From: a virus
Reading direction: 5' to 3' (one strand)
Length of the DNA: 64,000 nucleotides
Virus record (IMG/VR): IMGVR_UViG_3300025732_000019
Made by a program: the position numbers and the translations under genes. Below, in pieces: positions 27,098 to 61,316 of this stretch (within the stretch, counting starts at the first letter, position 1; every line of letters starts with the position of its first letter). Under the pieces are notes generated by a model. That model made no database searches. It was not told the origin of the DNA and was given only the letters and a program-made list of their open reading frames with translations.

Positions 27098-27126
27098 TTG
27101 ACACGACGACGCACCTGCGGTATAGT
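27098..27126 (+). promoter_or_regulatory. sigma70-type promoter, leaderless
   Basis: TTGACA-17-TATAGT, ATG 7 nt downstream. Confidence 0.75.
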
Positions 27127-27133
27127 AGCATCC

Positions 27134-27403
27134 ATGTCAAAAACACGCACACACCATCAGACGCACGAAGAACCTTTCCGCAAAGAAACTACGGCAGAGT
27201 TTTTGGCTCGCGGCGGCACCATTACCGTTGGCACTCCTGCCACTGGCATTCCCTGTGAGACGCACGAATTGATCGACCGTATTCTTGGCGCATCGTATGA
27301 TGACGCGCTCACGCAACGTGTCTCGGCCTTTACCGTTGCCGCGGAGATTCGCAGTGCGATTGCCGAACATCCGCAGTCTATCACAGAACCCGAATACGTA
27401 TAA
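27134..27403 (+). CDS. Small protein with SutA-like RNAP-binding motif
   Basis: AEFLARGGTI motif. Confidence 0.5.
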   Translation: MSKTRTHHQTHEEPFRKETTAEFLARGGTITVGTPATGIPCETHELIDRILGASYDDALTQRVSAFTVAAEIRSAIAEHPQSITEPEYV

Positions 27404-28273: not shown

Positions 28274-29998
28274 ATGGCTATCGATATCACGTTCGTCACC
28301 GATGATGAGAAGATTGATCTGCAGCAAAACATCTCCTTCATGATCGAAACCGCGCAGTCGGATCGCGATTTGCGTCAACTGTCGCATCTCGACGCAGGCA
28401 CATGGTATGGTCGCCGTCGGGCAGTCAATCAGCCCCATGCGGATGCGGTCACGTCGGTTCAGTATTTGTGCACCGTATGGTTTGACTTGAAACCGCATTT
28501 CTGTGACGTCCCGCCGCCGCAGCCTCTCGTAGACGTGACGGGTGATGAAATTGTGGCGCTCCATGACGTAGTGAAGCCGATCATGGATGCGCACAACCCT
28601 GACGCCTCATACGCAACGGAGTGCGTAGATATTGGATGCTCGTATGGCATCTATCGTCAGAATGGTGTCGCACCTGACGCCGCGCGTCGTGCATGTCTGG
28701 CGATTGTGTGCGGATGGTATGGCGTGCCGGTTCCTGCACCGCCTGCGCCGGCATTTGGGGGTATCGTCGGTCAACTGCGTGTGGATCATCTTACGTATCG
28801 CGACGACAACGGCTATGTGTTGCCGGTATTGTGCCACTTTGGAGAAGCGTTCAGTGCGTATGTGCGTCGACCGGATGACGTGCGGGTGGAGTTAGATCGC
28901 ATTCGTGCGGCCGGTTATGACGGCATTCGTTTTTGGGATGTGCTGGGCTACTACGATAAGAACCGCCCCGGTGACGCGAACAAGTGGAGCGCCTGGCAAG
29001 GTCGCGAAGTCACCCCGGTATCTTTTGTGGCGTTTTCGGGTGACACTAAAGCTCCAACCCCCAACTACTATGACCATCTCAAAGCGTTCTTGATCGAACT
29101 GCGGGATCGGCAGTTGGTGGCGCATCACTCACGCGGCGACCTGAATAGCTGGAAGTGGGATCAGGTGATTGCACACTGCCGTCGTGTCGGTGAGATTCAG
29201 CGTGAAGTTGGCGCACAGGTGATCGCGCTCAATGAATCGTGCAATGAAGCCTGGCAGAATGGTGTGCCAGAACCATCCAAGCTGCGAGAGATGGGGGATG
29301 CGTTGGGAAATCATGCCCTTCGCGGAAACTCCTGTGGCGATGATGGGTATGGTGGTGAGACACCAGATGAATTGAACCGCATGAAGCGCGATGTTGCGAT
29401 CATTCATGGCCATCGTAACGGTGAGTCATATAACCGCATTGGTCACATTCATGCGGTGGGCTACGAAACGCTATCTCACGCAAAAGTTCCTGCCTGGCAA
29501 GGTGAACCCGCTGGCCCGGGCGATGGCGTCAGTGTGGGTCGTGAAGAGCATCCCGAAGCACTGTGTCTCATGGCCGCGATGTCACTCGCCACGCATCAAG
29601 CATGGGTTTACATGTCCGGTCACGGCGTCTTCTGGAACGGCAGTATCAGTGAGATGATCGCGTTTCGTGAAGTCGCGAAGGTGCGTGACTATCTTCCCAA
29701 AGACATTATGGCGTGGCCGACCATCACACACGGTGGTGATCGATGGCGCGGCACTCGCGTGTTTGTGGCAAATGGAGACGGTTCTCTTCGCTGCGATCAT
29801 ATCTTGACGAACGATGGCCGCTTTGTCGCCTTAGTTTACGGTGCACCAAAGTCATGGTCGATACCCGTCGAGCGGAGTTTCGACGGAGACGTCATTCATC
29901 CAGTGACGGGTGAACGGCAACCGTTGTCGCTCAACGCAGGGCAGACATGGAATGTGAATTTCGAACGTGGTCGGATCGTGATCGGAACATTGCGATAA
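28274..29998 (+). CDS. Glycoside-hydrolase-like protein with extra N-terminal domain
   Basis: LDRIRAAGYDGIRFW, ESCNEAW, QGEP; Pro-rich linkers. Confidence 0.5.
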   Translation: MAIDITFVTDDEKIDLQQNISFMIETAQSDRDLRQLSHLDAGTWYGRRRAVNQPHADAVTSVQYLCTVWFDLKPHFCDVPPPQPLVDVTGDEIVALHDVVKPIMDAHNPDASYATECVDIGCSYGIYRQNGVAPDAARRACLAIVCGWYGVPVPAPPAPAFGGIVGQLRVDHLTYRDDNGYVLPVLCHFGEAFSAYVRRPDDVRVELDRIRAAGYDGIRFWDVLGYYDKNRPGDANKWSAWQGREVTPVSFVAFSGDTKAPTPNYYDHLKAFLIELRDRQLVAHHSRGDLNSWKWDQVIAHCRRVGEIQREVGAQVIALNESCNEAWQNGVPEPSKLREMGDALGNHALRGNSCGDDGYGGETPDELNRMKRDVAIIHGHRNGESYNRIGHIHAVGYETLSHAKVPAWQGEPAGPGDGVSVGREEHPEALCLMAAMSLATHQAWVYMSGHGVFWNGSISEMIAFREVAKVRDYLPKDIMAWPTITHGGDRWRGTRVFVANGDGSLRCDHILTNDGRFVALVYGAPKSWSIPVERSFDGDVIHPVTGERQPLSLNAGQTWNVNFERGRIVIGTLR

Positions 29999-30043
29999 CA
30001 TCGATTCATAAAAAAATGTTATGGTGTATAAGTATTATTGTAC

Positions 30044-30072
30044 TTGACAGACACCGCGATTTCCTATATACT
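30044..30072 (+). promoter_or_regulatory. sigma70-type promoter of leader/tRNA array
   Basis: TTGACA-17-TATACT. Confidence 0.85.
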
Positions 30073-30117
30073 CTTATACATCGTGGTGATCGTATTACCA
30101 CGAATGGCAAAGGAACA

Positions 30118-30264
30118 ATGATGCGACCCCAACCGATCCACAGCACCGCACCGCAACATACGAGCACACGGCTCGTCGCGGCCGGCGTGTATCTGATGGG
30201 GTGGACGACACTCACCCCATACATTGCTGAAGATAATATGCCAGCAGGGGAGTATCCATCTTAG
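30118..30264 (+). CDS. Candidate attenuator leader peptide (48 aa)
   Basis: AAGGA SD before ATG; lies between promoter and terminator; 3' end carries GCAGGGG complementary to the terminator 5' arm. Confidence 0.55.
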   Translation: MMRPQPIHSTAPQHTSTRLVAAGVYLMGWTTLTPYIAEDNMPAGEYPS

Positions 30265-30289
30265 CGAAAATCACTTCGCGACGATAGTG

Positions 30290-30330
30290 AAACCCCTGCC
30301 GGAGTAAAATCCCGCAGGGGTTTTTTGTTT
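30290..30330 (+). terminator. Intrinsic terminator/attenuator upstream of tRNA array
   Basis: AAACCCCTGC...GCAGGGGTTT followed by TTTGTTTT. Confidence 0.85.
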
Positions 30331-30377
30331 TCTGAGAACTGTGGTATACTTCGAAAATGCTACAGTAATGCATATAC

Positions 30378-30453
30378 GAGCTTGTAGCTCAATTGGCAGA
30401 GCAGCAGCCTCTTAAGCTGTTGGTTGAAGGTTCGACTCCTTCCGGGCTCACCA
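30378..30453 (+). tRNA. tRNA-Lys(CTT)
   Basis: Cloverleaf, loop CT-CTT-AA, CCA. Confidence 0.92.
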
Positions 30454-30487
30454 CGTTTTTTGACAACTGCATATCATCCGAAAATGG

Positions 30488-30564
30488 CGCGGGAATGGAG
30501 CAACGGTGGCTCATCAGCCTCATAACCTGAAAATCGGTGGGTTCAATTCCCACTCCCGCAACCA
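30488..30564 (+). tRNA. tRNA-fMet(CAT), initiator-like
   Basis: C1:A72 mismatch, loop CT-CAT-AA, CCA; anticodon stem lacks three G-C pairs. Confidence 0.8.
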
Positions 30565-30565
30565 T

Positions 30566-30639
30566 CCGCATGTCGCTCAATGGCAGAGCAGCACGTTTAC
30601 ACCGTGCCTATGGGAGTTCGATTCTCTCCGTGCGGACCA
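30566..30639 (+). tRNA. tRNA-Val(TAC)
   Basis: GCACG-TT-TAC-AC-CGTGC, CCA. Confidence 0.9.
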
Positions 30640-30644
30640 GTTGT

Positions 30645-30728
30645 ACCGATGTGGCGGAAAGGCATACGCGCTAGTCTGAGATACTAGTGGGGCAACCCAT
30701 AAGAGTTCGACTCTCTTCATCGGTACCA
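30645..30728 (+). tRNA. tRNA-Leu(GAG)
   Basis: CTAGT-CT-GAG-AT-ACTAG, variable arm, CCA. Confidence 0.9.
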
Positions 30729-30733
30729 GATAG

Positions 30734-30819
30734 GCCCGATTGGCGTAATTGGCAGCCGCGCTTGCCTTAGAAGCAAGTGTCTTATTGACGTGTAGGTTCG
30801 ACTCCTACATCGGGCACCA
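30734..30819 (+). tRNA. tRNA-Leu(TAG)
   Basis: CTTGC-CT-TAG-AA-GCAAG, variable arm, CCA. Confidence 0.9.
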
Positions 30820-30828
30820 GATTGTCAT

Positions 30829-30918
30829 GGAGAGTTGGCTGAGTGGCCGAAAGCAGCAGGTTGCTAACCTGTCGTGGTGTCACAACCACCACTGGTTCGA
30901 ATCCAGTACTCTCCGCCA
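30829..30918 (+). tRNA. tRNA-Ser(GCT)
   Basis: GCAGG-TT-GCT-AA-CCTGT, long variable arm, G73, CCA. Confidence 0.92.
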
Positions 30919-30921
30919 GTT

Positions 30922-30998
30922 GGGGTTGTAGTTTAGTTGGTGAGAACACTCGCCTGTCACGCGAGAGGTCGCGGGTTCGATCCCCGTCAACCCCGCCA
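30922..30998 (+). tRNA. tRNA-Asp(GTC)
   Basis: CTCGC-CT-GTC-AC-GCGAG, CCA. Confidence 0.92.
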
Positions 30999-31003
30999 AA
31001 TAT

Positions 31004-31077
31004 TGGGATGTAGTGTAATGGGAGCACCGGAGTCTCTGAAGCTCTTTGTCTAGGTTCGAATCCTAGCATCCCAGCCA
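31004..31077 (+). tRNA. tRNA-Gln(CTG)
   Basis: Loop CT-CTG-AA, U1-A72, CCA. Confidence 0.88.
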
Positions 31078-31085
31078 GATTTCAT

Positions 31086-31159
31086 TACCATGTCGTCCAA
31101 TGGCAGGACAACGGACTTTGAATCCGTGAATGGTGGTTCGAGTCCACCCGTGGTAGCCA
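31086..31159 (+). tRNA. tRNA-Gln(TTG)
   Basis: ACGGA-CT-TTG-AA-TCCGT, CCA. Confidence 0.9.
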
Positions 31160-31165
31160 CGTTTT

Positions 31166-31250
31166 GCCGGGTTCGCATAGTGGCGATTGCACCGCTCTTG
31201 TAAGGCGGCGAGGAAACTCCACGTCGGTTCGAGTCCGACACCCGGCTCCA
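31166..31250 (+). tRNA. tRNA-Thr(TGT) with long variable arm
   Basis: CCGCT-CT-TGT-AA-GGCGG, extra arm GAG-GAAA-CTC, CCA. Confidence 0.8.
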
Positions 31251-31254
31251 GTAT

Positions 31255-31330
31255 GCCATCGTAGCTCAATTGGGAGAGCAAGACTTTCGTAAAGTCGAGG
31301 TTGGAGGTTCAAGCCCTCTCGATGGCTCCA
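31255..31330 (+). tRNA. tRNA-Thr(CGT)
   Basis: GACT-TT-CGT-AA-AGTC, CCA. Confidence 0.85.
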
Positions 31331-31333
31331 TCT

Positions 31334-31410
31334 CGGAACGTAGCTCAGTTGGTTAGAGCAATCGCTTGATAAGCGATAGGTCGCTGGTTCGACTCCAGCC
31401 GTTCCGACCA
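31334..31410 (+). tRNA. tRNA-Ile(GAT)
   Basis: ATCGC-TT-GAT-AA-GCGAT, CCA. Confidence 0.92.
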
Positions 31411-31417
31411 CACATGT

Positions 31418-31491
31418 GGGTCAGAAGTGTTATGGTAGCACAGTGGCCTCCAAAACCGCGAGCGTAGGTTCGACTCCTACCTGATCCGCCA
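31418..31491 (+). tRNA. tRNA-Trp(CCA)
   Basis: Loop CT-CCA-AA, G73, CCA. Confidence 0.85.
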
Positions 31492-31516
31492 ATTTATTGC
31501 GAGTTATTTAATTTAC

Positions 31517-31591
31517 GGCGGTATCTTCTAATGGTTAGGAAAGTGCTCTTTCAAGGCAACAATCGGGGTTCGATTCCCCGTACCGCTACCA
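31517..31591 (+). tRNA. tRNA-Glu(TTC)
   Basis: Loop CT-TTC-AA, CCA. Confidence 0.85.
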
Positions 31592-31604
31592 GTATTTTGA
31601 TTAT

Positions 31605-31679
31605 GCCGCTTAGGCTTAGACAGCGAAGCACGACATTGGTAATGTCGAGAGCAGGGCGCACGTCCCTGAAGCGGCTCCA
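31605..31679 (+). tRNA. tRNA-Thr(GGT), atypical T-loop
   Basis: CGACA-TT-GGT-AA-TGTCG; T-loop CGCACGT instead of TTCRANY; CCA. Confidence 0.7.
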
Positions 31680-31683
31680 TTTC

Positions 31684-31759
31684 GGGCCCGTAGCTCAGTT
31701 GGGAGAGCGCCGCCTTTGCAAGGCGGATGTCGCAGGTTCGATCCCTGTCGGGTCCACCA
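31684..31759 (+). tRNA. tRNA-Ala(TGC)
   Basis: G3:U70, CCGCC-TT-TGC-AA-GGCGG, CCA. Confidence 0.93.
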
Positions 31760-31764
31760 GTTTC

Positions 31765-31850
31765 GGCGCGTTCGCATAGCGGCAATTGCATCTGGCTGTA
31801 AACCAGACGACCCACGGTCTACGGTAGTTCGAGTCTACCACGCGCCACCA
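31765..31850 (+). tRNA. tRNA-Tyr(GTA)
   Basis: TCTGG-CT-GTA-AA-CCAGA, variable arm, CCA. Confidence 0.9.
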
Positions 31851-31852
31851 TC

Positions 31853-31932
31853 TTTACCGACCGATACGTGTAGAGTATATCCACACGCAGTAAGTCCATC
31901 AAGGGTCGCAACCTTGGGCAACGGTCGGTAAA
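31853..31932 (+). ncRNA. Unidentified three-way-junction RNA inside tRNA array
   Basis: 11-bp closing stem TTTACCGACCG/CGGTCGGTAAA, inner stems CGTGT/ACACG and CAAGG/CCTTG. Confidence 0.65.
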
Positions 31933-31941
31933 TCTTTTTGT

Positions 31942-32016
31942 TGGGATGTAGCTCAATGGCAGAGCGTTCGGCTGTTAACCGAATGGTTGTAGGTTCGAGT
32001 CCTACCGTCCCAGCCA
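31942..32016 (+). tRNA. tRNA-Asn(GTT)
   Basis: TTCGG-CT-GTT-AA-CCGAA, CCA. Confidence 0.93.
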
Positions 32017-32026
32017 TCTCTAAAAC

Positions 32027-32100
32027 GCGGCATTGGTGTAGTGGAAGCATGGAACCTTGCCAAGGTTCAGGTATCGGATCGTTACCGATATGCCGCTCCA
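32027..32100 (+). tRNA. tRNA-Gly(GCC)
   Basis: GAACC-TT-GCC-AA-GGTTC, T-loop ATCGTTA, CCA. Confidence 0.8.
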
Positions 32101-32101
32101 C

Positions 32102-32172
32102 GCGGGTATGGTATATCGGTTGTGCCTCGGCCTTCCAAGCCGAAGAAGTCGGTTCGACCCCGACTACCCGCT
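32102..32172 (+). tRNA. tRNA-Gly(TCC), no encoded CCA
   Basis: TCGGC-CT-TCC-AA-GCCGA. Confidence 0.85.
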
Positions 32173-32188
32173 TACCCAATCCATTTTT

Positions 32189-32263
32189 GTGCCGTTGGCT
32201 GATTGACGAGGCGAACGCCTGCAAAGCGTTTTCAAGATGGTTTGATTCCATCACGGCACTCCA
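32189..32263 (+). tRNA. tRNA-Cys(GCA)
   Basis: AACGC-CT-GCA-AA-GCGTT, U73, CCA. Confidence 0.85.
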
Positions 32264-32268
32264 TCTAT

Positions 32269-32344
32269 GGTGGTATAACTCGATTGGAACAGAGGGCAGA
32301 CTGTGACTCTGCTGAAGCGGGTTCGATTCCCGTATACCACCCCA
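32269..32344 (+). tRNA. tRNA-His(GTG)
   Basis: G-1:C73, GCAGA-CT-GTG-AC-TCTGC, CCA. Confidence 0.88.
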
Positions 32345-32347
32345 TAT

Positions 32348-32424
32348 CGGAGAGTGGGCTAAAGGCTGGCCGCCTGCCTTGGGAGCAGGATATCAAGCGA
32401 GTTCGATTCTCGCCTCTCCGACCA
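32348..32424 (+). tRNA. tRNA-Pro(TGG)
   Basis: CCTGC-CT-TGG-GA-GCAGG, CCA. Confidence 0.88.
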
Positions 32425-32428
32425 TCTT

Positions 32429-32503
32429 GGGTCGTAAGCATTCGTGGTGATGCTCTAGACTTTTAATCTGGCGAACCGAGTTCGACTCTCGGACGACCCA
32501 CCA
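32429..32503 (+). tRNA. tRNA-Lys(TTT)
   Basis: CTAGA-CT-TTT-AA-TCTGG, CCA. Confidence 0.88.
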
Positions 32504-32531
32504 TTTATCTTTCGGATGATATGCAGTATAT

Positions 32532-32607
32532 GTCGGTGTGGTCTAACGGAGAAGGCACGGTGTTTCTACCACCGAAGATGTGGGTTCGACTCCTACCACC
32601 GACACCA
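32532..32607 (+). tRNA. tRNA-Arg(TCT)
   Basis: CGGTG-TT-TCT-AC-CACCG, CCA. Confidence 0.85.
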
Positions 32608-32611
32608 GTAT

Positions 32612-32686
32612 ACCAGTGAAGCCGATTGGCGAGGCGCGACGCCCATACCGTCGTTGTAGTGGGTTCGATTCCCTCCGCTGGTACCA
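32612..32686 (+). tRNA. tRNA-Met or Ile2 (CAT) with C33
   Basis: CGACG-CC-CAT-AC-CGTCG, CCA. Confidence 0.75.
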
Positions 32687-32687
32687 C

Positions 32688-32765
32688 GGGCACCGAGCGA
32701 GTCTGGTGATTCCGCGCCTGTCTGAAGAGCAGGAGAATGTGGTTCGATTCCACAGGTGCCCACCA
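32688..32765 (+). tRNA. tRNA-Phe(GAA)
   Basis: CCTGT-CT-GAA-GA-GCAGG, CCA. Confidence 0.85.
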
Positions 32766-32772
32766 CATGTAC

Positions 32773-32855
32773 ACCCGCGTGTCGTAATGGCAGCCGAGGT
32801 AGACTCAAAATCTACTGCTCGAAAGAGCGTACTGGTTCGATTCCAGTCGCGGGTA
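32773..32855 (+). tRNA. tRNA-Leu(CAA), no encoded CCA
   Basis: GTAGA-CT-CAA-AA-TCTAC, variable arm. Confidence 0.88.
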
Positions 32856-32868
32856 CTATCTAAGTACA

Positions 32869-33521: not shown

Positions 33522-33608
33522 TGGCGTGTGTCCGGAATGGCATCGGCCCTGACTGTTAATCAGTGCGCCCGAAAGGGAATGTAGGTTCGAATCCTACCAC
33601 GCCAGCCA
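33522..33608 (+). tRNA. tRNA-Asn(GTT) with long variable arm
   Basis: CTGA-CT-GTT-AA-TCAG, extra arm CCC-GAAA-GGG, G73, CCA; own TGTGGTATAAT promoter at 33490-33500. Confidence 0.8.
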
Positions 33609-33696: not shown

Positions 33697-34359
33697 ATGA
33701 GGAAAAAATTACTCGTTTTCAGCTTCATCAGTCTTCTGAGTGCCGCCTGTGCAACCAAGACATTTGTGCGCCAGTCCGTACAGCAAGTCGAACAGCGTGT
33801 CGAGGATCAAGAGCAGCGCACACAGCAGAAGATTGATGCCTTGAACGCAGGGTTGTCACAGCAGCAGGATCGGCTCGCAGGCACCCAAGAACACGTCGGT
33901 CGTGTCGAAACCCATGCCGCGTCGGCCGAGAAACACGCACAGACAGCGCAGGCGTCAGCGGATGGGGCCCATCAGCGTACGCAGGCACTCGAACTCACGC
34001 TGTCCAATGTGAATCGTCAGGTCGTGCTGGCGGATCGGGCACAGGGGTTCACTCGCAACTCGGCGCGGCTGTCGCGTGAGACGCAGGCGGCGCTCGATGC
34101 GTTTGTGGATGAAGTGCGTCGCCAGCAACTGGTCTGGATTGAAATTGAAGGGCATACCGACAATACCGGCAACGCGGCCTATAACGCACAGTTGAGTGTG
34201 GCTCGTGCAGAAGTGGTGCGTCAGTATCTGGCGTCGAAAGGTGTGCCGCTACACAAGATGACCGTGATTGGGTATGGTGTGACGCGCCCGGTGGCGCCGA
34301 ATCGCACTCGCGGCGGTCGCGCACAGAATCGTCGCGTCGTCGTACGAGCGGTGCGCTAA
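33697..34359 (+). CDS. OmpA-family peptidoglycan-binding lipoprotein
   Basis: Lipobox LSAAC, coiled coil, IEGHTDNTG...N..LS..RAE.V, NRRV. Confidence 0.9.
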   Translation: MRKKLLVFSFISLLSAACATKTFVRQSVQQVEQRVEDQEQRTQQKIDALNAGLSQQQDRLAGTQEHVGRVETHAASAEKHAQTAQASADGAHQRTQALELTLSNVNRQVVLADRAQGFTRNSARLSRETQAALDAFVDEVRRQQLVWIEIEGHTDNTGNAAYNAQLSVARAEVVRQYLASKGVPLHKMTVIGYGVTRPVAPNRTRGGRAQNRRVVVRAVR

Positions 34360-35381: not shown

Positions 35382-35410
35382 TTGACATCTTCATACACAG
35401 TCACTATAAT
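35382..35410 (+). promoter_or_regulatory. Consensus sigma70 promoter
   Basis: TTGACA-17-TATAAT; degenerate cassette palindrome at 35331-35357. Confidence 0.85.
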
Positions 35411-35416
35411 ACACGC

Positions 35417-35530
35417 ATGCTTAATCATCAGTTTTCATTGACGGTATGGGATATTGTCGTACTGTTCATCGATGCGACATTCTTTGCTCTTGGGATTGGG
35501 TTTTACCTGCTACATATGGGAGTCATCTAA
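35417..35530 (+). CDS. 37-aa leaderless membrane peptide
   Basis: MLNHQFSLTVWDIVVLFIDATFFALGIGFYLLHMGVI; ATG 6 nt after -10. Confidence 0.5.
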   Translation: MLNHQFSLTVWDIVVLFIDATFFALGIGFYLLHMGVI

Positions 35531-39042: not shown

Positions 39043-39194
39043 CAATCAAGCACATACGGGAATCGCATGCATGCAGCGCATCCTGCGGCAGACATTCATA
39101 CAATCTTTGCATCCCAAACCCTCCTGTAACCCCTTGATAATCAAGCACTTACACGCATCCTCGATTTGACACTGCTGGCAGAATCTCCTATACT
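39028..39194 (+). repeat. Promoter cassette copy B (two palindromes + sigma70 promoter)
   Basis: Palindromes 39031-57 and 39126-52; TTGACA 39166, TATACT 39189. Confidence 0.85.
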
Positions 39195-39196
39195 GT

Positions 39197-39391
39197 ATGC
39201 AGATGATGACTCGTAAACATTTTGTGCTGATTGCACACCTCTTCAAATCCACGAAGCCTGACGCGTCGAACACTGTCGCTATGCGGCAGTGGGAATCCAC
39301 CGTCATGCAGTTCGCGCATGCGGGTGTCACGATGAATCCGCGTTTCAATGCCACTCGGTTTCTCAAGGCGTGTGATCTGTGGCTGCGCTAA
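39197..39391 (+). CDS. Small phage protein
   Basis: MTRKHFVLIA...NPRFNATRFLKAC. Confidence 0.7.
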   Translation: MQMMTRKHFVLIAHLFKSTKPDASNTVAMRQWESTVMQFAHAGVTMNPRFNATRFLKACDLWLR

Positions 39392-42885: not shown

Positions 42886-43051
42886 CCCGTAAGTGCTTGA
42901 AATACAAGCATTTACGGGGATGTATGCGTCACACGCATACTGGTCGGGAGAGTATAGAAAGTTTGCATACTAAAATACCCCGTAAGTCGTTGAAAATGCA
43001 GGGGTTACGGATATCCCCGGTTTGACAGGGATGCCGGTTTCGGAATATACT
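42886..43051 (+). repeat. Promoter cassette copy E
   Basis: Palindromes 42889-42915 and 42982-43008; TTGACA 43022, TATACT 43046. Confidence 0.85.
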
Positions 43052-43061
43052 ATACGTATCA

Positions 43062-45359
43062 ATGATGATGAATCACTCCTCCTCTCCCACGAACTGGTCA
43101 AAACATGTGCAGTTGGATGATCAGAAGCGTGGCCTTGCGCGTCTCATGGCGCGTGAGAATATCACCGTCGAACATGGTGCATACGAGACAGCTTCCTTTG
43201 ACGTCGAGACTCGCGTGTTACGGCTCCCGCTGTGGGACAATGTGACGCTCGATCAGTATGACCTCCTGATTGGTCATGAAGTCGGTCACGCGTTGTATAG
43301 CGACGATTTGTCGTTTATTGACGATTGCAAAGCCGCTCCCGGTTTGCATACCTTCATTAACGTGCTTGAGGATGTGCGCATTGAGCGCCGCATCAAGGAT
43401 GCGTTTCCTGGCATGCAGGGTGCGTTTCAGCGCGGCTACCGTGACTTCTTCGAACACGGCCCGCTGTTTCAGTTGACGAAGCCGGTTGCGGAATACAGCT
43501 TCATTGACCGCATTAACATCCATTACAAGATTGGTGCGCACGTGACGGTACCGTTCACGGATGATGAACGTGCGATTCTCGCGAAGGTCGACGCCACGCG
43601 TACGATGGGTGACGTCATTGCGCTGGCCAAGGAACTGTACGGCGCTGCCAAGTCTGAACAGAAGAAGCAGAATCCTGAGTCGGGATCGCAGTCGTCGAAG
43701 CCGTCTTCTGACGAAACGACTGGCCAGTCGCCGACGGCGAAGTCGTCGGATTCAGAGTCTAATTCAGAGTCGGACTCAGAGTCTAATTCAGAGTCGGATT
43801 CAGAGTCGGACTCAGAGTCTAATTCAAAGTCGGATTCAGAGTCTAATTCAGAGTCGGATTCAGAGTCGGATTCAGAGTCGGATTCAGAGTCGGAATCGAG
43901 TTCGGATTCAGAGTCGGATTCAGAGTCGGAATCGAGTTCGGATGCGACGTCAGAATCGGATGTGACGTCGGATGCGCCGCATGCGGAAACGGATATGGCG
44001 AACGCCGCTGCCATGAAGACGATGCAGTCTGCGACGTCTGACGTGCGCACCGTGACGCATGTGCCGCTGACGAAGAGTGAAGCGGATGCCTACACCGTGA
44101 GTGTCGCGGACGTCGTGCGCGAAGCGGTGCGGATCGAAACGCAGTATGCCACGCGTGCGACGAGCATCACGGCATCGCTGGAAACGCTGACGCGTCAGTA
44201 TGCACCGACTGCCGCGCACATGGCGCGAGAGTTCGAACGTCGCAAGAGCGCCAAGCAGTTGGAACGTGCGCGAGTCGCGACGACGGGTCGTCTGAACCTG
44301 AAGAAGTTGCCGTTCTATCAGTTCCGTGAAGATTTGTTCCAGCAAGTGACGATTCTTCCGAACGGCCAGTCACACGGTTTGATGCTCCTGATCGACGGTT
44401 CCGGCAGTATGTCGGGTGTGTTTCCGGATGTCATCGAGCAGGTGTTTCTCTTCGGATTGTTCGCCAAGCAGGTGCGCATTCCGGTGCAAGCGTTTGTCTT
44501 TCAGACGTCGTATCACAGTCCGTTGATGCCGAACGCGCAGCGATTGATGCCGCGTGCGGTGCAGTTGGTGACAGTCTTGGATACGACGTCGAAGGTGCCG
44601 ATCGCTGCGCAGTTGCGCAGTCTTGCGCAGTTGCATTGCGCGTTCTCGGGATTCGACGCGCATCTCGCGCCGTATGTGCGTCTCGCGGCCACGCCGCTCT
44701 ACGGTGGCATGCTCGTCATGGAAACGCATGTCCTGCGCATGCGCGAGTCGCTGGGCTTGCAAAAGATGACAGTCATGGTGCTGACGGATGGTGAAGACTC
44801 CGACGGTCTGTATGCGGGTGAGCAGCGCATCTCGTCGTCTCCGGGGGCGGCTCGCGTGATCGTGCGCGACACGCTGACGCATCGCACGTTTGTGGGGTTC
44901 ACAGACGCGCCGGATACGTATTGGGGATACACGACGGATCGACACCTGCTGAACCGTCTGATGCATCATGTTTATACGGTGGGCCTCGGTGTCTCCCTGA
45001 TTCGCTTGTATATCGGTCGCGACTCGGATTGCCGTAGTCATCGTGCCGTCGGGACGATGGCGAGCGCGTTGGGCTCGTTGACGGATGCCAAGGATGTGTA
45101 CCAAGTCGCCGCGCCGTACGGTGCGCGTCTCGCGGATGACAAGATTGCTGCGGTGACACGGAAGGATCTGCCGAGCCTGTTTGCGGATACCGCGATTATC
45201 GTGTCGAACCGCAAGCTGGATATGCAGGATGACACGTTTGAAGATCTCGATACTTCGACGATGACGAATCGCCGAATCATGAGTGCCTTTACGAAGAGTA
45301 ACGTAGCGGCCGCTCAAAATCGCGTCTTAATCAATGCGGTGATGCCGTTCATTGCGTAA
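43062..45359 (+). CDS. CobT-like metallopeptidase + VWA protein (MoxR partner)
   Basis: LARLMA.ENI.V, HEVGHALY, NVLEDVRIE, MIDAS DGSGSM and LTDGE. Confidence 0.88.
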   Translation: MMMNHSSSPTNWSKHVQLDDQKRGLARLMARENITVEHGAYETASFDVETRVLRLPLWDNVTLDQYDLLIGHEVGHALYSDDLSFIDDCKAAPGLHTFINVLEDVRIERRIKDAFPGMQGAFQRGYRDFFEHGPLFQLTKPVAEYSFIDRINIHYKIGAHVTVPFTDDERAILAKVDATRTMGDVIALAKELYGAAKSEQKKQNPESGSQSSKPSSDETTGQSPTAKSSDSESNSESDSESNSESDSESDSESNSKSDSESNSESDSESDSESDSESESSSDSESDSESESSSDATSESDVTSDAPHAETDMANAAAMKTMQSATSDVRTVTHVPLTKSEADAYTVSVADVVREAVRIETQYATRATSITASLETLTRQYAPTAAHMAREFERRKSAKQLERARVATTGRLNLKKLPFYQFREDLFQQVTILPNGQSHGLMLLIDGSGSMSGVFPDVIEQVFLFGLFAKQVRIPVQAFVFQTSYHSPLMPNAQRLMPRAVQLVTVLDTTSKVPIAAQLRSLAQLHCAFSGFDAHLAPYVRLAATPLYGGMLVMETHVLRMRESLGLQKMTVMVLTDGEDSDGLYAGEQRISSSPGAARVIVRDTLTHRTFVGFTDAPDTYWGYTTDRHLLNRLMHHVYTVGLGVSLIRLYIGRDSDCRSHRAVGTMASALGSLTDAKDVYQVAAPYGARLADDKIAAVTRKDLPSLFADTAIIVSNRKLDMQDDTFEDLDTSTMTNRRIMSAFTKSNVAAAQNRVLINAVMPFIA
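43743..43970 (+). repeat. 12-bp tandem repeat encoding Ser-Asp/Glu linker
   Basis: TCGGATTCAGAG / TCTAATTCAGAG units (SDSE/SNSE). Confidence 0.9.
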
Positions 45360-56609: not shown

Positions 56610-56748
56610 TTGACATCCGCATGTATGTGCGGTATACTTGCTTTCGTTGTTGGTGATGCGTTTTGAAATTTCCATTGCATGCCAACGTTGGCAGACGTGG
56701 TACAGAAGCAAAAGAATGCTTGACACCGACTCTGCAATGTGAGATAAT
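56610..56748 (+). promoter_or_regulatory. Tandem sigma70 promoters
   Basis: TTGACA(56610)-17-TATACT and TTGACA(56720)-17-GATAAT. Confidence 0.75.
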
Positions 56749-56824
56749 AGTTCTCATGGTGATGAACGAAAACACTGGCGACGGTTATCACCCTTCAAAC
56801 TTCAGAGCCAGTCACAAAGGTAAA

Positions 56825-57151
56825 ATGAATATGTCGAACACGTCAATGACCGCTACGCAGAAGCTGCTTTCCTACCTCAAGACCGGTCGCGATATTACCG
56901 CTGCACAGGCGCAGAGCCGCTTCGGTATCTCGAACGTTTCTGCTCGGGTGTCGGAGCTTCGCAAGGCGGGTTATTCGGTGTACCTGAACGAGAAGGTCAC
57001 GTCGAACGGCAAGACGATCAAGGCGTACCGCCTCGGTACTCCGACGCGTCGTCAGGTGGCGATCGCGAACTTCGTCGAGAGCAACCCGAACTTCTTCGGC
57101 AAGGCGTCGTGGATCGGTGACCGCGCCGCGCGTCTGATGAAGACCGTGTAG
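56825..57151 (+). CDS. Winged helix-turn-helix DNA-binding protein
   Basis: KLLSYLKTG..IT...A..RFGI....ARVSELRKAGY.V....YRLG. Confidence 0.82.
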   Translation: MNMSNTSMTATQKLLSYLKTGRDITAAQAQSRFGISNVSARVSELRKAGYSVYLNEKVTSNGKTIKAYRLGTPTRRQVAIANFVESNPNFFGKASWIGDRAARLMKTV

Positions 57152-57156
57152 TCATG

Positions 57157-57187
57157 ACGAGGGGCTTCGGCCCCTCGTTTTGTCTTT
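57157..57187 (+). terminator. Intrinsic terminator
   Basis: ACGAGGGGC-TTCG-GCCCCTCGT then TTTGTCTTT. Confidence 0.85.
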
Positions 57188-57247
57188 GCATCTCTGACGA
57201 GCCCGCAAGGGCGAAACATGCTGTGCACACACCAGCATGTCAGATGC
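57188..57247 (+). ncRNA. Hammerhead ribozyme, type I
   Basis: Stem I GCATCT/AGATGC, core CTGACGA, stem II GCCC-GCAA-GGGC, GAAA, stem III CATGCTG/CAGCATG, GTC cleavage triplet ending at 57241. Confidence 0.9.
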
Positions 57248-57422
57248 TGTTCAAGGGGTGTCGTATCCTCTTGAAGTGATATCGCGTGTTGCATACGAAC
57301 CAACCGTGATACCATAAGCCTCAATGACAGGAACGTTGGTGGTGACAGGCGTCATTGAGTATATAGAAACCATCGACGCCGTGGATGCGAGTGCACTTGC
57401 GCCACGGCGTTATTATTTTTTC
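57242..57422 (+). ncRNA. Unidentified structured RNA (kissing loop + pseudoknot + terminal hairpin)
   Basis: Four consecutive hairpins with two independent loop complementarities; ends in a U-rich run. Confidence 0.6.
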
Positions 57423-61223: not shown

Positions 61224-61316
61224 GCCCCTGTAGTGTAACGGTGAGCACCCGAGGCTTATACCCTCGCAGCCCTAGATGTGGGCGGAGTCTTGGTTCGAAT
61301 CCAAGCGGGGGTACCA
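61224..61316 (+). tRNA. tRNA-Ile(TAT) with long variable arm
   Basis: CGAGG-CT-TAT-AC-CCTCG, extra arm GCCC...GGGC, CCA. Confidence 0.8.

Follow-up and report, generated by a model that had tools for sequence, protein, structure and literature searches.

The locus

The window analyzed here, the whole 64-kb stretch of DNA, has a GC content of ~52%. Its large minus-strand genes match baseplate and tail families of the T4 type (the gp6 wedge, the gp5 hub-lysozyme, and gp48), its closest cultured relatives reach only ~33% amino-acid identity, and near-identical contigs were found across many metagenomes, from lakes and from other sources. Judged by these matches, the window belongs to a distant T4-like phage of lake metagenomes. 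Since the top cellular matches of its OmpA-domain protein (33697-34359) are MAGs of Vicinamibacterales/Acidobacteriota, lake MAGs included (35-50% identity over the full length), there is a hint that the host is probably a member of the Acidobacteriota.

The region at the head of the tRNA array contains the following features:

30044-30072, plus strand: promoter P1, with TTGACA at 30044-49, a 17-nt spacer, and TATACT at 30067-72
30081-30103, plus strand: 5'-terminal hairpin, TCGTGGT/ACCACGA at 30081-87/30097-103, directly at the predicted transcript start
30110-30114, plus strand: Shine-Dalgarno-like AAGGA, 6 nt ahead of ATG 30121
30121-30264, plus strand: orphan ORF of 47 codons plus TAG (30262-64), or 48 codons if the start is ATG 30118
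30196-30220, plus strand: perfect 8-bp hairpin inside the ORF, a putative pause site in the initial annotation, arms 30196-203/30213-220, z -3.4 against shuffles
30241-30250, plus strand: candidate antiterminator strand CCAGCAGGGG, codons 41-44, including the second GCAGGGG (30244-50)
30290-30331, plus strand: intrinsic terminator, a AAACCCCTGC / GCAGGGGTTT stem with an inner GGA/TCC helix, then TTTTTTGTTTT
30340-30350, plus strand: promoter P2, extended -10 TGTGGTATACT, ending 27 nt before tRNA-Lys
30378-32856, plus strand: array of 27 tRNA genes (ARAGORN and Rfam), covering all 20 amino acids

An initial annotation had read this arrangement as a leader-peptide attenuator of the tRNA array. 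The elements that it described (promoter, 5' hairpin, Shine-Dalgarno-led ORF, 8-bp hairpin, terminator, GCAGGGG repeat, and TGTGGTATACT) were all recovered at the positions that it gave.

A probable small gene between promoter P1 and a strong terminator

Promoter P1 is preceded by an AT-rich tract (30010-30043), and transcription from it is predicted to start near 30079-80. Exact TTGACA-N16-18-TATAMT sites occur five times in the window, all on the plus strand, against 0.02 expected, so P1 is not a chance match. Because the family promoter at 35382 leads into a leaderless 37-aa hydrophobic ORF at 35417, small first genes seem to be a habit of this phage behind promoters of the P1 family. Consensus TTGACA-N17/18-TATAxT promoters were seen at 27098-27136, 35382-35419, 39166-39205, and 43022-43064, with the end of the -10 hexamer 7-10 nt ahead of the ATG of a real ORF (27134, 35417, 39203, and 43062, respectively); the mRNAs from these four promoters appear to be leaderless or nearly so. 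The 89-aa product of the ORF at 27134 was also called by gene callers.

The hairpin that would open the P1 transcript has a 7-bp core, or 10 bp in its extended form (-12.4 kcal/mol, z -4.2 against shuffles), and is probably a 5' stabilizer. A similar hairpin follows an equivalent promoter in a related phage locus (L002, at 11697).

The ribosome-binding site of the ORF resembles those of real genes, as AAGGA(A/G) with 5-7 nt spacing is also found before the long genes at 28274, 33697, 55477, and 60513. Gene callers chose the 47-codon form on other assemblies, and the ORF was reported in 23 contigs. Codon log-odds scoring, with 35 long ORFs as the training set, gave the ORF a coding-like value: only 2.8% of stop-free non-coding frames score as high, and among real 47-codon gene segments it stands at the 19th-20th percentile. 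The center of the peptide, LVAAGVYLMGWTTLTPYIA, is moderately hydrophobic, with basic residues on its N side and acidic ones on its C side. The product is probably a small protein, and possibly a membrane-associated one.

We searched for the peptide with a word index and, exhaustively, with HMMER against 1.84 billion cluster representatives. The sole protein matches were an identical peptide of the same phage lineage and a single-substitution variant; neither of these large searches returned a homologue outside the lineage, PHROGs held no match, and tblastn against all fetched loci gave none. A protein function is accordingly putative. Two other readings of the transcript were dropped: a leaderless upstream ORF at GTG 30083, since the predicted 5' end is not a start codon, and a type I toxin-like mRNA, since the peptide is weakly hydrophobic and the 5'-3' pairing uses bases past the likely 3' end.

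The terminator begins 26-29 nt past the stop codon of the ORF. Its core arms, CCCCTGC (30293-99) and GCAGGGG (30314-20), form a stem of -19.6 to -22.7 kcal/mol. When both strands of the 64 kb were scanned for hairpins followed by a T-run, only two strong terminators were found, this one and another at 57375-57420. The latter likewise closes a promoter-gene unit (56610-57420), with a consensus promoter at 56610, a TTGACA...GATAAT promoter ~80 nt downstream, and an ORF of ~160 aa; its terminator is the strongest in the window.

The tRNA array and its own promoter

Promoter P2 follows the terminator and precedes the first tRNA gene. Its motif, TGTGNTATAMT, is present in the window in three copies (30340-50, 33490-500, and 58535-45), where 0.2 would be expected; all three are on the plus strand, and the one at 33490-500 ends 21 nt ahead of the solitary tRNA-Asn gene at 33522. 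We found the same motif in two related loci, L002 and L003, ahead of the tRNA-Val gene that heads the main array and ahead of tRNA-Ile(TAT) (5676-86 and 9628-38 in L002; 5991-6001 and 9199-9209 in L003). Two sites in the phage, and four in L002 and L003 together, thus have it immediately ahead of tRNA genes. Members of this motif family often follow a T-run, and in this phage group they mostly lie directly upstream of tRNA genes. Because the family precedes tRNA genes both here and in relatives, the array would be independent of terminator read-through. The caveat of the initial annotation, that an extended -10 promoter at 30340-50 could bypass the terminator, holds.

Besides the 27 genes of the array, ARAGORN and Rfam place one further tRNA gene at 33522 and one at 61224. 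The array itself holds two tRNA-sized spacers that are not tRNAs. One (31601-31679) is 93.7% identical to L002 6159-6237; the other (31851-31941) is predicted to fold into a three-way junction with an 11-bp closing stem (z -4.1). Both may be co-processed stable RNAs.

As the tRNAs have a promoter of their own, a self-contained small-gene unit is the most likely reading of the locus, and with moderate confidence we interpret 30044-30331 as an autonomous early cassette of this kind, whose terminator insulates the tRNA promoter P2. The near-consensus sigma-70 promoter P1 would give rise to an mRNA of ~250 nt, headed by the stabilizing 5' hairpin, which would carry a single Shine-Dalgarno-led orphan gene of 47 codons and end at the strong intrinsic terminator. 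The same terminator would close the upstream operon that starts at 27098 and, because it would end both units, the tRNA array would be shielded from the strong upstream promoter and transcribed mainly from the extended -10 promoter at 30340-50. On this reading, the peptide would have a function, the terminator would work efficiently and constitutively, and its arm would recur within the ORF by coincidence. In favor of such a cassette are the membership of P1 in a family of five perfect promoters, others of which also drive small first genes, the gene-like ribosome-binding site and codon score of the ORF, the placement of P2-family motifs immediately ahead of tRNA genes in this phage, L002, and L003, and the fact that the other strong terminator, too, ends a promoter-gene unit.

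The position of the terminator also allows for a temporal gate. Read-through mediated by antitermination factors has been proposed for the delayed-early genes of T4-type phages. By analogy, a terminator set between an immediate-early unit and the tRNAs might be read through later with the help of a phage or host antitermination factor. The phage is T4-like, and one of only two strong terminators in its 64 kb separates a strong early-type promoter from genes on the same strand, which is what such a gate would need. However, we identified neither an antitermination factor nor a recognition site, and P2 makes read-through unnecessary; we consider a gate improbable.

Distribution among related phages

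Phage GenBank records were matched by blastn at the tRNAs alone, and tblastn of the same records with the neighboring 574-aa gene gave no match. Scans of IMG/VR and JGI metagenomes with this gene returned three or four contigs, all with unrelated DNA downstream. In three contigs (L001, L092, and L093), the gene is 84-85% identical at the amino-acid level and the cassette is missing 3' of it; such presence in one lineage and absence next to a neighbor gene of ~85% identity is typical of accessory, moron-like units and argues for the small-gene cassette. One of these contigs, from a related lake phage, also encodes a tmRNA (L093 2141-2559; ARAGORN, asterisk flag) with the tag peptide ATDNYQLAMAA. 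An exact-word search of IMG/VR for the first tRNA found none.

Homologous arrays were reached through the HNH gene, by which 80 phage loci were fetched. L002 and L003 carry an HNH gene of 78% identity together with homologous tRNAs. In both, the array head follows directly after a 210-aa gene, with no leader, no terminator, and only a P2-type promoter, which speaks for the cassette reading. At another site in L002, a TTGACA-17-TATACT promoter, a 5' hairpin, and a Shine-Dalgarno-led 85-aa ORF lead into tRNA-Leu and tRNA-Glu with no terminator in between. Because of this arrangement, small genes appear to be co-transcribed with tRNAs in this group in the absence of any switch. Across the 80 related loci, none of the 25 tRNA-array heads was preceded by a strong terminator within 250 nt, in a scan run with a positive control. 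The initial annotation had suggested looking for the same architecture before tRNA arrays of related phages; no relative was found to have it.

Population variants and the fold of the transcript

Variants of the same population were also compared. A second, mosaic lineage with ~95% identity overall differs at one base in 30073-30340, and a third variant (L082) has three more changes. The 1-4 changes in the 268-nt transcript region compare with ~4.6 expected from the conserved flanks (~1.7% divergence), which is not a significant difference. All four variable sites (30089, 30092, 30205, and 30272) lie in or beside hairpin loops, and the only one that falls within the ORF is a Thr-to-Ser replacement; no change is synonymous. 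No variant touches the competing helices described below, so the variants carry no covariation information either way.

Two further differences were seen among these lineages. Between them, the 3' two-thirds of the 574-aa gene (28700-29990) diverges by 13-20% in nucleotide sequence, compared with 1-2% in the flanks. The gene has no Pfam or PHROG match; the divergence suggests allele exchange in the 574-aa protein, which may have a role in host interaction. The 95% lineage (L082 2136-2703 and L086 6354-6921, against ~31592-31760 of the window) also has extra tRNAs, Arg-ACG, Arg-CCG, Thr-GGT, and Ala-GGC, after tRNA-Glu; because of these, the content of the array is variable within the population, with its first 14 tRNAs and the leader nearly unchanged.

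The complete 254-nt transcript is predicted to fold better than shuffled sequences, with a z of about -5.1 to -5.5. This fold would suit a structured non-coding RNA of ~250 nt that opens the array and in which the ORF is fortuitous; the T4 tRNA cluster, for comparison, includes stable non-tRNA RNAs. That the few changes in the transcript all lie in or beside hairpin loops, and that none is synonymous, speaks for an RNA function and against a small gene, and the orphan status of the peptide points the same way. Even without the terminator, a z of -3.0 is left, but it falls to -1.8 once the 5' hairpin is removed as well, so a handful of discrete local hairpins accounts for the signal, and the absolute folding energy of the transcript is ordinary for the genome. 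A scan of the locus against Rfam 15 (E up to 10) gave only look-alikes of the terminator that scored far below the threshold, with no match to a T-box or to a His, Trp, or Leu leader, and the whole window gave tRNAs only. As the sequence is not conserved in relatives and the ORF combines a good ribosome-binding site with a coding-like score, we regard a non-coding RNA as very improbable.

An alternative partner for the terminator

A feature that counts against the small-gene cassette is the repeat of the terminator arm inside the ORF. As the initial annotation had noticed, GCAGGGG occurs at both 30244-50 and 30314-20, and each copy can pair with CCCCTGC at 30293-99. The full repeat is CCNGCAGGGG, shared by 30241-50 and the terminator 3' arm at 30311-20; CCAGCAGGGG is a near-copy (9/10) of that arm, CCCGCAGGGG. 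The alternative duplex, between 30241-50 and the terminator 5' arm at 30293-302, amounts to -17.5 kcal/mol. This energy was attained in 2.5% of dinucleotide shuffles of the leader, in 2% of natural 165-nt windows of the genome, and in 0.3% of natural 45-nt windows, the last figure (p 0.003) being applicable only if the strand must adjoin the leader stop. The pairing thus outdoes ~98% of shuffled or natural sequences. The control terminator at 57375-57420 has no comparable partner (78th percentile).

Several properties of the pairing are those of a ribosome-controlled switch and count against a mere coincidence. The strand 30241-50 ends 11 nt ahead of the stop codon, a position that, by its geometry, would be covered when a ribosome has reached the leader stop. 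Four consecutive codons spell the strand, CCA GCA GGG GAG, all of which are non-preferred. Nascent RNA from 30221 or 30243 to 30313, which lacks the 5' end of the leader as RNA behind a ribosome would, is predicted to prefer the antiterminator, and the full-length RNA the terminator, which is better by 8-11 kcal/mol. When the leader is folded in full, as if untranslated, the predicted partner of GGGG 30247-50 is CCCC 30127-30 together with the bases around the start codon (30120-30), in a 1:2-like helix that is not significant alone (p 0.09). A trp-type or bmrB-type attenuator topology is therefore present, modestly beyond chance. Because the locus was chosen for this pairing, however, a chance event of 2% is not negligible.

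We next considered what such a switch could sense. The initial annotation had noted that the leader contains no run of one amino acid and uses 17 of the 20, and it had proposed a general sensor of tRNA depletion. Both observations are correct, and no codon of any kind is repeated in a run, but the count of 17 is unremarkable, given that 48% of 47-codon gene segments use at least 17 amino acids. The leader touches 19 of the 26 anticodons of the array, and both counts equal the median of ordinary 47-codon gene segments. The fraction of leader codons readable by phage tRNAs is 0.81, compared with 0.78 for genes. Lys, Phe, and Cys codons are all missing from the leader, yet the array opens with tRNA-Lys. 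Neither the amino acids nor the codons of the leader are enriched for the tRNAs of the array, although the complete tRNA set makes an enrichment hard to detect. With no regulatory codons, and with array tRNAs sampled no better than by an average gene segment, the depletion sensor finds no support; the associated link to host anticodon-nuclease attack was pure speculation and rests on nothing in the sequence. What stands of the attenuator proposal is the presence of its structural prerequisites and the pairing. The part that made the array a tRNA-sensing target is unsupported, the leader having no codon bias and the array its own promoter. The absence of codon or tRNA sampling bias is in line with an ordinary small gene.

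Comparison with known systems

Phage morons and other autonomous early cassettes consist of a promoter, a small gene, and a terminator. The present unit resembles them in its own strong promoter, single small accessory ORF, and own terminator, and in its presence in one lineage when close relatives are without it. It differs in that it directly heads a tRNA array and contains a second pairing partner for its terminator that is unusually good.

The classical leader-peptide attenuators are trpL, hisL, leuL, thrL, and ilvL of enterobacteria. The locus shares with them a promoter, a short Shine-Dalgarno-led ORF, helices of the 1:2, 2:3, and 3:4 type that share the terminator 5' arm, and a strand 2 that would be covered once a ribosome has reached the stop codon. 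In contrast to them, it has no runs of regulatory codons, its leader is two to three times longer, a promoter lies downstream, and the element is not conserved in relatives.

A closer parallel is the bmrB leader of the bmrCD operon in Bacillus subtilis, where ribosome-mediated attenuation operates through a 53-aa leader that has no codon run (PMC4191407). The bmrB antiterminator is less stable than its terminator and still works, and there is no promoter between the leader and the genes, as was tested there (PMC4191407). The likeness lies in a long leader ORF (53 aa, compared with 47-48 here) without a codon run, in an antiterminator weaker than the terminator, and in the type of signal, as general slow translation, not the shortage of one amino acid, would give read-through. 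The differences are that the bmrB terminator lies inside the coding region, whereas here it follows the stop codon, that an extended -10 promoter intervenes here, and that the downstream genes are tRNAs, at a locus known from sequence alone.

On this model, the leader would act as a generic sensor of translation speed that has no need of regulatory codons. A ribosome reaching the stop would mask 30241-50 and the terminator would form; a ribosome lagging anywhere in the ORF would leave 30241-50 free to pair with 30293-302, and P1 transcripts would enter the tRNA array. Read-through would then add to a basal transcription from P2 when translation is slow. Every structural part of such an attenuator is present, including the folding order of nascent and full-length RNA and the 1:2-like helix, the pairing reaches a p of 0.02-0.025 overall, the bmrB precedent (PMC4191407) shows that attenuation can operate without a codon run and with an antiterminator less stable than its terminator, and L002 offers a case of a strong promoter and small ORF co-transcribed with tRNAs. 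On the other hand, a promoter of the tRNA-associated type stands past the terminator and ahead of the first tRNA, the leader is no better than the median gene segment in its coverage of amino acids and phage tRNAs, and the architecture occurs in no relative found. The terminator is also the stabler fold, and the identical competing strand should ease displacement. Weighing these points, we treat ribosome-mediated attenuation as a tentative and rather unlikely reading, and return to the small-gene cassette as the preferred one.

Implications

If the locus comprises only a small early gene and an insulating terminator, it is ordinary, and its description chiefly aids the annotation of transcription units in an uncultured T4-like phage. 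If, however, translation of the leader controls the terminator, the phage would tune the production of its own tRNAs to the decoding speed of the ribosome. Lagging ribosomes, for example after loss of host tRNAs, would then cause read-through from P1 into the complete array of 27 tRNAs. To our knowledge, this logic of control by decoding speed has not been described for tRNA genes. Were it true, it would be relevant to the ways in which large phages deal with codon usage that does not match that of the host, or with attacks by the host on tRNAs.
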